The position numbers and the translations under genes were made by a program. The notes under the pieces are model-generated. The model worked only from the letters and a program-made list of their open reading frames with translations. It was not told where the DNA came from and did no database searches. This document shows, in pieces, positions 13,725 through 14,102 of a stretch of 64,000 bases of DNA (positions are counted from its first letter, which is position 1; each line of letters opens with the position of its first letter). This DNA is from Podospora anserina (taxonomy: Eukaryota), in assembly GCA_017654855.1 (NCBI GenBank), contig CM030335.1:3782001-3846000 (forward strand), in the 5' to 3' direction.

Positions 13725-14102
13725 CTAAAATGCCAAGTCTGGATCAAACTCTGTAGTACCATCACGCTTTTTGCTTCTCTTGAAGGCAAGGTCCGGGTCA
13801 AATTCGGTAGTCCCATCACGGCGATTCTTCTTGAAGGCAAGGTCTGGGTCAAACTCCGTTGTCCCATCGCGCTTTTCCTTTCTGAACGCTAGGTCAGGAT
13901 CGAACTCGGTAGTCCCATCACGACGATCAATTTCGACAGGCGGAGTGAGCATCACGGCTCGGCCTGATGCAGAGATGCCTCTGTCAACAACTGCAACCTC
14001 AGGAAAGCGACATTCCCTTTGGGGCAAGTACTTACGTGGAACCATTGGTGATGCTGCTGCCACCGAGATGAGCAACGCGGCGAGGAGATTTGATGATTTC
14101 AT
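13725..14102 (-). CDS. Kex2-processed repeat protein / fungal RiPP (dikaritin-type) precursor peptide with 4 copies of core DGTTEFDPDLAF
   Basis: Signal peptide MKSSNLLAALLISVAAASP, followed by four identical 12-aa units each preceded by RR or KR and separated by basic spacers (RKEKR, KKNRR, KRSKKR). There is a probable in-frame 72-nt intron at 13964..14035, giving about 101 aa spliced. The gene is adjacent to two DUF3328 genes. Confidence 0.9.
   Translation of the reverse strand: MKSSNLLAALLISVAAASPMVPRKYLPQRECRFPEVAVVDRGISASGRAVMLTPPVEIDRRDGTTEFDPDLAFRKEKRDGTTEFDPDLAFKKNRRDGTTEFDPDLAFKRSKKRDGTTEFDPDLAF
13728..13919 (-). repeat. Coding tandem repeat: four 36-nt core units (13884-13919, 13833-13868, 13782-13817, 13728-13763)
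   Basis: The units encode an identical peptide and differ only at synonymous positions. Spacers are 15-18 nt. Confidence 0.95.

Follow-up and report, generated by a model that had tools for sequence, protein, structure and literature searches.

A transcribed Podospora anserina precursor gene points to an uncharacterised family of repeat peptides accompanied by UstYa/DUF3328 enzymes

Does a tyrosine-free peptide core that ends in Leu-Ala-Phe mean that Podospora anserina makes a macrocycle of the victorin type? The question is raised by a gene in a 64,000-nucleotide stretch of P. anserina DNA (assembly GCA_017654855.1, contig CM030335.1, positions 3,782,001 to 3,846,000; "the window" below, with coordinates counted from its first base). 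The gene encodes a precursor with four exact copies, in minus-strand translation, of the 12-residue core DGTTEFDPDLAF, and a preliminary description of the locus had proposed a victorin-like ring on the terminal LAF. We favour a different reading, to which we give a probability of about 0.6: an expressed precursor gene of an uncharacterised family of fungal ribosomal peptides that are Kex2-processed and UstYa/DUF3328-dependent, in which each cassette consists of an Arg site, the nonapeptide DGTTEFDPD and a hypervariable hydrophobic tail. We rate the uncharacterised, widespread precursor family for DUF3328 enzymes as the new element here, and the dikaritin-type hallmarks of the locus as known ones.

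The four cores are set between basic residues:

13884..13919 (-), core copy 1, DGTTEFDPDLAF, DRR before and RKEKR after
13833..13868 (-), core copy 2, DGTTEFDPDLAF, EKR before and KKNRR after
13782..13817 (-), core copy 3, DGTTEFDPDLAF, NRR before and KRSKKR after
13728..13763 (-), core copy 4, DGTTEFDPDLAF, KKR before and a stop codon directly after

Dibasic RR or KR, as in kexin-type sites, precedes each core. The core has no Tyr, two Phe (F6 and F12) and four acidic residues (D1, E5, D7 and D9), and its end, DPDLAF, stands directly before basic residues or the stop codon. On translation, this composition was exactly as the preliminary description had given it, and the span it had named, 13728..13919, coincides precisely with the stretch from the start of core 1 to the end of core 4. 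Tandem Repeats Finder detected the core region as 3.7 copies repeated with a period of 51 nt, 74% of the bases matching. Ten of the 12 core codons differ between copies, with at least about 15 substitutions by count, all of them synonymous and none changing a residue; Leu10, for example, is encoded by CTA, CTT, CTT and TTG in copies 1 to 4. The synonymous-only divergence suggests that the copies have had time to drift apart at the DNA level, and that all 12 residues, LAF included, are under selection in this lineage. The computed [M+H]+ values are 1327.569 for the unmodified linear 12-mer, 350.207 for LAF and 824.383 for FDPDLAF.

Evidence for transcription came from contigs of four public runs with the same species label (X1, X4, X9 and X10), mapped to window positions 11500-17600. 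The RNA nature of runs X1-X14 is only guessed in the record, where none is recorded as RNA; we took the X1, X4, X9 and X10 contigs to be RNA-derived because GT..AG introns on the correct strand are missing from them in four genes. Spliced forms were present for the precursor, for two UstYa genes and for a flavin monooxygenase gene beside it. Together with the open reading frame (ORF), the contigs define the precursor gene as follows:

13725..14102 (-), precursor gene, ORF of 125 codons (125 aa unspliced, spliced product 101 aa)
14035-14102 (-), exon 1, signal peptide
13963-14034 (-), in-frame GT..AG intron of 72 nt, joint in runs X1 and X9 (2 of 4 runs)
13725-13962 (-), exon 2, including the stop codon
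14208-14357 (-), intron of 150 nt in the 5' untranslated region (UTR), joint in one contig, from run X1 only

The precursor gene is real, transcribed and spliced. Its product begins with a hydrophobic N-terminus, MKSSNLLAALLISVAAASP, which has a hydrophobic core and a small-residue end and is, by eye, a predicted signal peptide; a short pro-region and the four cores follow. Homologues have a similar type of N-terminus, and the spliced translation is identical at 100 of 101 residues to a Podospora bellae-mahoneyi model (P0003, QC761_404500). Being predicted to be secreted, with repeats bounded by dibasic sites, the precursor has the make-up of a Kex2-processed repeat protein.

To define which part of the core is conserved, we compared the units of homologous precursors. 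A word-based search returned 21 homologues, from Podospora, Triangularia, several Xylariales, Cytospora, Paecilomyces, Aspergillus ellipticus and Mycosphaerellaceae. The resulting close family comprises 68 units from 22 proteins; the regular expression that collected them missed units departing at positions 3-6 (such as one DGTAEF unit in P0006), and the counts at those positions should be read with that in mind:

Position -1, Arg in 68/68, with K or R at -2 in 54/68
D1, G2, T4, E5 and F6, 68/68 each
T3 in 63/68, D7 in 65/68 and D9 in 67/68
Position 8, Pro in 52 and Ala in 12 of 68
Position 10, F 30, L 15, A 15, Y 4 and G 3 of 68
Position 11, A 33, G 15, F 8 and V 7 of 68
Position 12, F 41, Y 15 and L 11 of 68
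Residue after the tail, Lys 50, Arg 8, stop 7 and Phe 3 of 68

Positions 10-12 hold 18 different tripeptides in these units, including FAF, FGF, YGF, FAL, FFL, AVY, AFY, GAF and GLF. LAF accounts for 14 of the 68, with 12 in three Podospora-type proteins and 2 as LAFF in one other protein. FAF is the tail of the nearest other genus, Triangularia, and also of a metagenomic locus (L001, described below) and one further assembly. Tails ending in Tyr occur in 15 of the 68 units, which makes the Tyr-free state lineage-specific. Glycine at position 10 in the GAF and GLF tails of Cytospora provides no beta-carbon, and Leu12 in the FAL and FFL tails of Xylariales provides no ring.

Searching 1.84 billion cluster representatives with a profile yielded 60 hits and extended the set to a wider family of 63 proteins with 163 units; six hits above 210 aa in length were left out and three proteins gave no parseable unit. 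Across this family D1 is present in 163/163 units, G2 in 162/163, T4 in 146/163 and D9 in 151/163. E5 (131/163) and F6 (126/163) are replaced in distant members, for instance in DGSTESDTDSYF, DGATPVGTDEWF, DGTTKQDSDLWF and DGAVDPDADQMIL. The tails take 65 forms among the 163 units. Units ending in LAF number 12, in 3 of the 63 proteins, all Podospora-type, and LAFF ends 4 more units in 2 further proteins. Of the 163 units, 30 contain Tyr, 32 lack an aromatic residue in the tail and 9 lack one anywhere. The sources of ten distant members were looked up and proved to be Sordariales, Xylariales, Thyridium, a lichen fungus and one other. The homologous precursor of Pseudocercospora fijiensis is protein 133152. 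As judged from these alignments, LAF is the Podospora-lineage version of a variable tail, selected there and not family-defining. DGTTEF had no match in the full-text literature searched, and DGTTEF, TEFDPD and TEFDAD were absent from the supplements of PMC7329392, PMC6339444 and PMC12048977; with long files possibly incomplete and the 2016 and 2020 PNAS mining papers outside the search, this is no proof that the family is unprinted.

Which enzymes accompany the precursor was assessed by a Pfam scan of 57 ORFs of at least 110 aa, chosen from the 131 listed in the window; shorter exons lay outside the scan. The gene order around the precursor is flavin monooxygenase (-), precursor (-), UstYa gene 1 (+), UstYa gene 2 (+) and a Fung_rhodopsin membrane protein (+):

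11766-13122 (-), class A flavin monooxygenase (FAD_binding_3), Pfam matches on both exons
12210-12267 (-), intron of the flavin monooxygenase gene, 58 nt, joint in 4 of 4 runs
14844-15726 (+), UstYa/DUF3328 gene 1, exons about 14844-15066, 15139-15459 and 15524-15726, PF11807 on exon 2 (E 5.2e-11)
15067-15138 and 15459-15522 (+), introns of UstYa gene 1, GT..AG joints in runs X1 and X4
16287-17358 (+), UstYa/DUF3328 gene 2, exons about 16287-16518, 16592-16711, 16762-16880, 16944-17022 and 17093-17358
16519-16591, 16712-16761, 16880-16942 and 17022-17091 (+), introns of UstYa gene 2, GT..AG joints, four in X1 and three in X4
About 18103-19593 (+), multi-pass 7TM-like membrane protein with a Fung_rhodopsin domain (PF20684, E 1.4e-7), several exons

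Both UstYa genes lie within 2.2 kb of the precursor start, and each encodes an N-terminal membrane helix and two HxxHC motifs, HNLHC and HADHC in gene 1 and HMLHC and HWDHC in gene 2. Exon 2 of gene 1 is 100% identical to a 248-aa protein of Podospora pseudocomata (P0023, QC762_404496), and the last exon of gene 2 is 99% identical to a 271-aa PF11807 protein of the same species (P0042, QC762_404494). The two genes share 30% identity with one another. In a tree of DUF3328 relatives (27 of 28 rows, with P0044 dropped at under 185 aa) they head two separate clades (100/100), a separation that is partly by construction, each set having had its own query. A search of PDB sequences with P0023 gave nothing at E up to 1. 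Dikaritin clusters are described as having four hallmarks, namely a signal peptide, tandem repeats, kexin sites and a gene for a DUF3328 protein (PMC9632046, PMC12048977), and the locus fits them with its predicted signal peptide, tandem cores, kexin sites and adjacent DUF3328 genes.

The flavin monooxygenase carries a Rossmann GGGLAG motif at its N-terminus. The nearest solved structures, found with its L001 orthologue as query, are salicylate hydroxylase 6bz5 (E 6.9e-39), TropB 6neu, SorC 9h8m and AfoD 7lo1; enzymes of this type hydroxylate or dearomatise phenols. Tyrosinase, methyltransferase, S41 peptidase and copper amine oxidase genes were all absent from the 57 scanned ORFs, a result that does not extend to shorter exons. 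An ORF between the monooxygenase and the precursor (13300..13665, minus strand) was rejected as a gene, having no Pfam match and no contig cover at 13336-13539. The precursor and UstYa gene 1 form a divergent pair whose common promoter region is only a few hundred bases, and a 5' UTR intron was seen in UstYa gene 1 (14725-14808, 84 nt, run X4) as in the precursor (14208-14357, run X1). The run contigs depart from the window sequence by one base each at 12900 (C>T, 4 of 4 runs), 17259 (A>C, 3 runs) and 14763 (C>G, 1 run), probably as a result of strain differences.

Is this block of genes kept together elsewhere? We scanned metagenome contigs for RDGTTEFD; 22 stretches matched the pattern and one was confirmed, the fungal locus L001. 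L001 keeps four of the five block genes. Its precursor carries DGTTEFDPDFAF twice. UstYa gene 2 is represented by an orthologue that aligns in four tblastn segments at 35-75% identity (E 2.8e-48). Beside the precursor lies a flavin monooxygenase orthologue (52-69% identity), and next to that a membrane protein orthologue (tblastx segments mostly 44-78% identity). A comparison of window positions 10000-23000 with L001 gave no gene matches beyond these four, and by this comparison the conserved block ends where the flanks of L001 and the window diverge. Just past the membrane protein gene, a eukaryotic aspartyl protease lies at 19978-21698 (+) in three ORF pieces; it was rejected as a cluster member, as it has no counterpart in L001. 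Two similar ORF-like stretches of L001 (8864-9149 and 10497-10847, both minus strand, with the shared words ...SAPG.AGY.PSWPSLA.RPR.R...) flank the precursor where UstYa gene 1 would be expected, and may be a repeat or transposon remnant tied to its loss.

Among annotated genomes, the Podospora locus tags 404494 and 404496 (UstYa genes) and 404500 (precursor) are adjacent. A precursor and a DUF3328 homologue occur on contigs of equal size in Xylaria grammica (569,172), Paecilomyces variotii (124,012), Astrocystis sublimbata (296,260) and one further assembly (11,706). DUF3328 homologues thus accompany the precursor in the window and L001 and, counting by tag or contig size, in five or more further assemblies across Sordariomycetes and Eurotiomycetes. 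In Triangularia verruculosa the DUF3328 orthologues (P0024 and P0043, with near-adjacent ids 314969 and 314971) are on a 108,630-nt contig and the precursor (P0004) is on a 274,356-nt contig; either the enzymes have a second, unannotated precursor next to them or there is no linkage between precursor and enzymes in this species.

These observations are consistent with the following pathway. The signal peptide would take the precursor into the secretory pathway at the endoplasmic reticulum. Judging from the sites, kexin in the Golgi would cut after the Arg before each D1, and the C-terminal basic residues would be trimmed. The two membrane-anchored DUF3328 enzymes, presumably binuclear-copper, O2-dependent C(sp3)-H oxidases like CctR, could then act on side chains of the cassette by oxidation or cross-linking, with the hydrophobic tail as the likeliest site. 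At a later step the salicylate-hydroxylase/TropB-like flavoenzyme may hydroxylate or dearomatise an aromatic ring, as its family and conserved adjacency suggest. We read the nonapeptide DGTTEFDPD as the recognition or processing handle of each cassette, and consider the odds about even that it is retained in the product.

Several observations weigh against the reading we favour. No product is on record. A lone Arg precedes the first cassette in many homologues, where no earlier tail needs releasing, which points to a free Asp1 N-terminus, and with it the nonapeptide itself, as important for the product and not just as a handle. A modification at T4, E5 or F6 would equally account for the invariance of these residues in the close family. 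The flavoenzyme has no visible signal peptide and therefore would not meet a lumenal peptide directly. Given the tails and whole units that lack an aromatic residue (32 and 9 of 163), no single aryl cross-link explains the whole family. An orthologue of UstYa gene 1 was not found within 20 kb in L001, so the two-enzyme set is not universal, and linkage in the four assemblies named above was judged from equal contig sizes, not from coordinates. A more specific form of the favoured reading, in which RDGTTEFDPD is an in-cassette recognition sequence and the product is the oxidised or cross-linked tail of three or four residues, an architecture not yet described for fungal DUF3328 peptides, is tentative and on balance doubtful. 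Under that form the ring pair could lie in either order (L/F/A-x-F/Y as in victorin, F-x-L as in ustiloxin), and LMIL or LLL tails would be hydroxylated or halogenated.

The whole 12-mer could instead be the mature scaffold, modified in its conserved part, for example by a ring or hydroxylation at Thr4-Glu5-Phe6 (an X-x-Phe triplet), with the tail tuning activity. That T4, E5 and F6 are each found in 68/68 close units would follow naturally, the invariant Arg before D1 even in first cassettes points to a defined Asp1 N-terminus, and the block conserves no peptidase gene that could remove nine residues, the aspartyl protease being absent from L001. However, the wider relatives that replace E5 and F6 still keep D1, G2, D9 and a hydrophobic tail, and in repeat-cassette precursors of ribosomal peptides the conserved flanks are described as recognition elements and the variable stretches as cores (PMC12048977). 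We regard this explanation as unlikely. A further alternative is that the precursor is a plain Kex2-processed repeat protein whose linear peptides are released unmodified, for example for signalling, while the DUF3328 genes act elsewhere; this is very unlikely in our judgement. Such proteins are described as widespread in fungi, many without modifying enzymes (PMC7329392, PMC6339444), no modified product of this family is on record, and DUF3328 genes of P. anserina have been linked to mating type (PMC5006380, citing another paper); but the repeated company of precursor and DUF3328 homologues across assemblies, and a conserved block that stops where the flanks diverge, argue against it.

As for victorin itself, the premise of the preliminary description was sound, because a review places the victorin ring between the side chain of the C-terminal Phe and an internal Leu and counts victorin as a dikaritin although it lacks Tyr (PMC9233826). 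When homologous precursors were aligned for invariant core positions, however, the invariant part was DGTTEFD[PA]D and the LAF tail was hypervariable, and the proposed ring on LAF did not hold up as a shared feature. Relatives should keep a functional LAF and do not, and the ending shared with the victorin core is most likely a coincidence within a hypervariable tail, as the preliminary description had itself cautioned for a three-residue match. Its other suggestion, that DGTTE(F) is a leader-like element, agrees with a conserved block followed by a variable tail and fits better than the victorin-like proposal; the trimming that went with it is covered by the even odds given above. Victorin-like chemistry of the kind first proposed, in which a DUF3328 enzyme would join the beta-carbon of Leu10 to the ring of Phe12, closing a three-residue ring identical to that at the Leu-Ala-Phe end of victorin, and the acidic nonapeptide would be a new N-terminal arm, is quite unlikely. 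It would suit the 53 of 68 close units with Phe or Tyr at 12 and a beta-carbon residue at 10, a further 11 in the reversed order F-x-L (compare Tyr-x-Ile of ustiloxin), the selection on Leu10 in all four window copies despite three different codons, and the dearomatising type of the conserved flavoenzyme. Against it stand the restriction of LAF to 3 of 63 family proteins (LAFF in 2 more), Gly10 without a beta-carbon in 3 Cytospora mali units, Leu12 in 11 units, and wider relatives with the ring-free tails LMIL, LAVL, LAIL and LLL. No other part of the victorin core, neither the N-terminal Gly nor Lys, is present; the window core starts with Asp, where a victorin core starts with Gly for the copper amine oxidase, and no such oxidase was among the 57 ORFs scanned. 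In 64 of the 68 close tails an aromatic residue does lie two positions from a beta-carbon residue, in either order, and a dikaritin-size three-residue ring in the tail may be possible for much of the close family. Nineteen and nine named matches to UstYa genes 1 and 2 included no Cochliobolus or Bipolaris protein, which says little, as these searches reach close relatives only. The locus is no evidence for a victorin-like toxin in Podospora.

Very few peptide substrates are known for DUF3328 enzymes, whose nature as binuclear-copper C-H oxidases was shown only in 2025, in a report that describes them as membrane-associated, homodimeric and O2-dependent, acting on C(sp3)-H bonds (PMC12435403). 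The family described here is a natural substrate series, with a constant nonapeptide and a tail of three or four residues in at least 65 forms, spread over Sordariomycetes, Eurotiomycetes, Dothideomycetes and a lichen fungus. Its tails range from those with Tyr, through those with Phe only, to those with no aromatic ring, and it makes testable both what DUF3328 enzymes recognise and how they act when the usual Tyr nucleophile is missing. For such work Podospora offers a host that is both tractable and harmless. If the product is indeed the short tail, one conserved handle would let evolution swap tail chemistry freely.

The rest of the window contains several other features. A Terpene_syn_C_2 ORF (7323-8265, plus strand, E 9.5e-16) lies about 3.5 kb from the flavin monooxygenase gene and has no counterpart in L001. 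ORFs of 2944 and 2097 aa with condensation, AMP-binding and PP-binding domains (34068-49367 and 51076-52698, both minus strand) adjoin an L-ornithine N5-monooxygenase gene (Lys_Orn_oxgnase), and by its domains the 34068-52698 region looks like a hydroxamate siderophore cluster built on a non-ribosomal peptide synthetase. Positions 31705-33855 (-) encode a protein with a HET (heterokaryon incompatibility) domain, about 716 aa long, and long frames of 464, 333 and 701 aa at 23080-25456 (+) and 27298-29403 (+) matched no Pfam family at E up to 0.01.

Comparison with known systems places the locus among the dikaritins in layout, with differences in detail. Like victorin of Cochliobolus victoriae, it has a ribosomal, multi-core precursor with predicted kexin processing and DUF3328 dependence, and a Tyr-free core ending in Leu-Ala-Phe. 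The match to victorin is confined to the last three residues, which are replaced in relatives of the window precursor; the core here is acidic and 12 residues long, whereas that of victorin is a basic hexapeptide; and the copper amine oxidase that acts in the victorin pathway was not seen among the 57 ORFs. The victorin core string GLKLAF and the chlorine chemistry are taken from the preliminary description. With ustiloxin and phomopsin (UstA/PhomA, UstYa/UstYb) the locus shares tandem cores behind a signal peptide, kexin sites and a neighbouring pair of distinct DUF3328 paralogues. In UstA and PhomA, as in the window core, acidic residues stand directly before the variable or cross-linked part. 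The window core differs in lacking a Tyr aryl-ether donor; no tyrosinase of the UstQ/PhomQ type, methyltransferase or S41 peptidase was among the 57 ORFs, and the partners here are a class A flavin monooxygenase and a membrane protein. Asperipin-2a (AprA/AprY) is closed by DUF3328 enzymes alone, and the window likewise has no tyrosinase match among the 57 ORFs. AprY reportedly needs copper, O2 and dimerisation for its function (PMC12435403); the asperipin-2a core is described as Tyr-rich and bicyclic (PMC9233826), while the window core has no Tyr.

Kex2-processed repeat proteins resemble the window precursor in having a signal peptide followed by peptides repeated between dibasic sites. The window family differs in its tie to DUF3328 genes, and DGTTEF, TEFDPD and TEFDAD did not appear in the supplements of the two surveys of such proteins, within the limits given above. 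DUF3328 genes of P. anserina are reported to be expressed more highly in mat- than in mat+ (PMC5006380, citing another paper), and a Sordaria DUF3328 cluster to be up-regulated in protoperithecia (PMC5006380), which hints at a DUF3328 role in the sexual cycle. In Pseudocercospora fijiensis, DUF3328 clusters and salicylate-hydroxylase-like genes are reported as induced in planta (PMC5006380, PMC9002641). CctR, the DUF3328 hydroxylase of cyclochlorotine, shares with the window UstYa proteins the HxxHC(x)nHxxHC signature and an N-terminal membrane helix (PMC12435403). Unlike the presumed substrates here, that of CctR is a non-ribosomal cyclic peptide with no repeat precursor; by analogy, its hydroxylation of aliphatic C-H bonds without an aromatic partner would suit Tyr-free and aromatic-free tails. 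The cyanobactin PatE-like precursors are bacterial, with unrelated enzymes, and offer a functional analogy without homology: there too, conserved flanks guide the enzymes and the cores are short and hypervariable.

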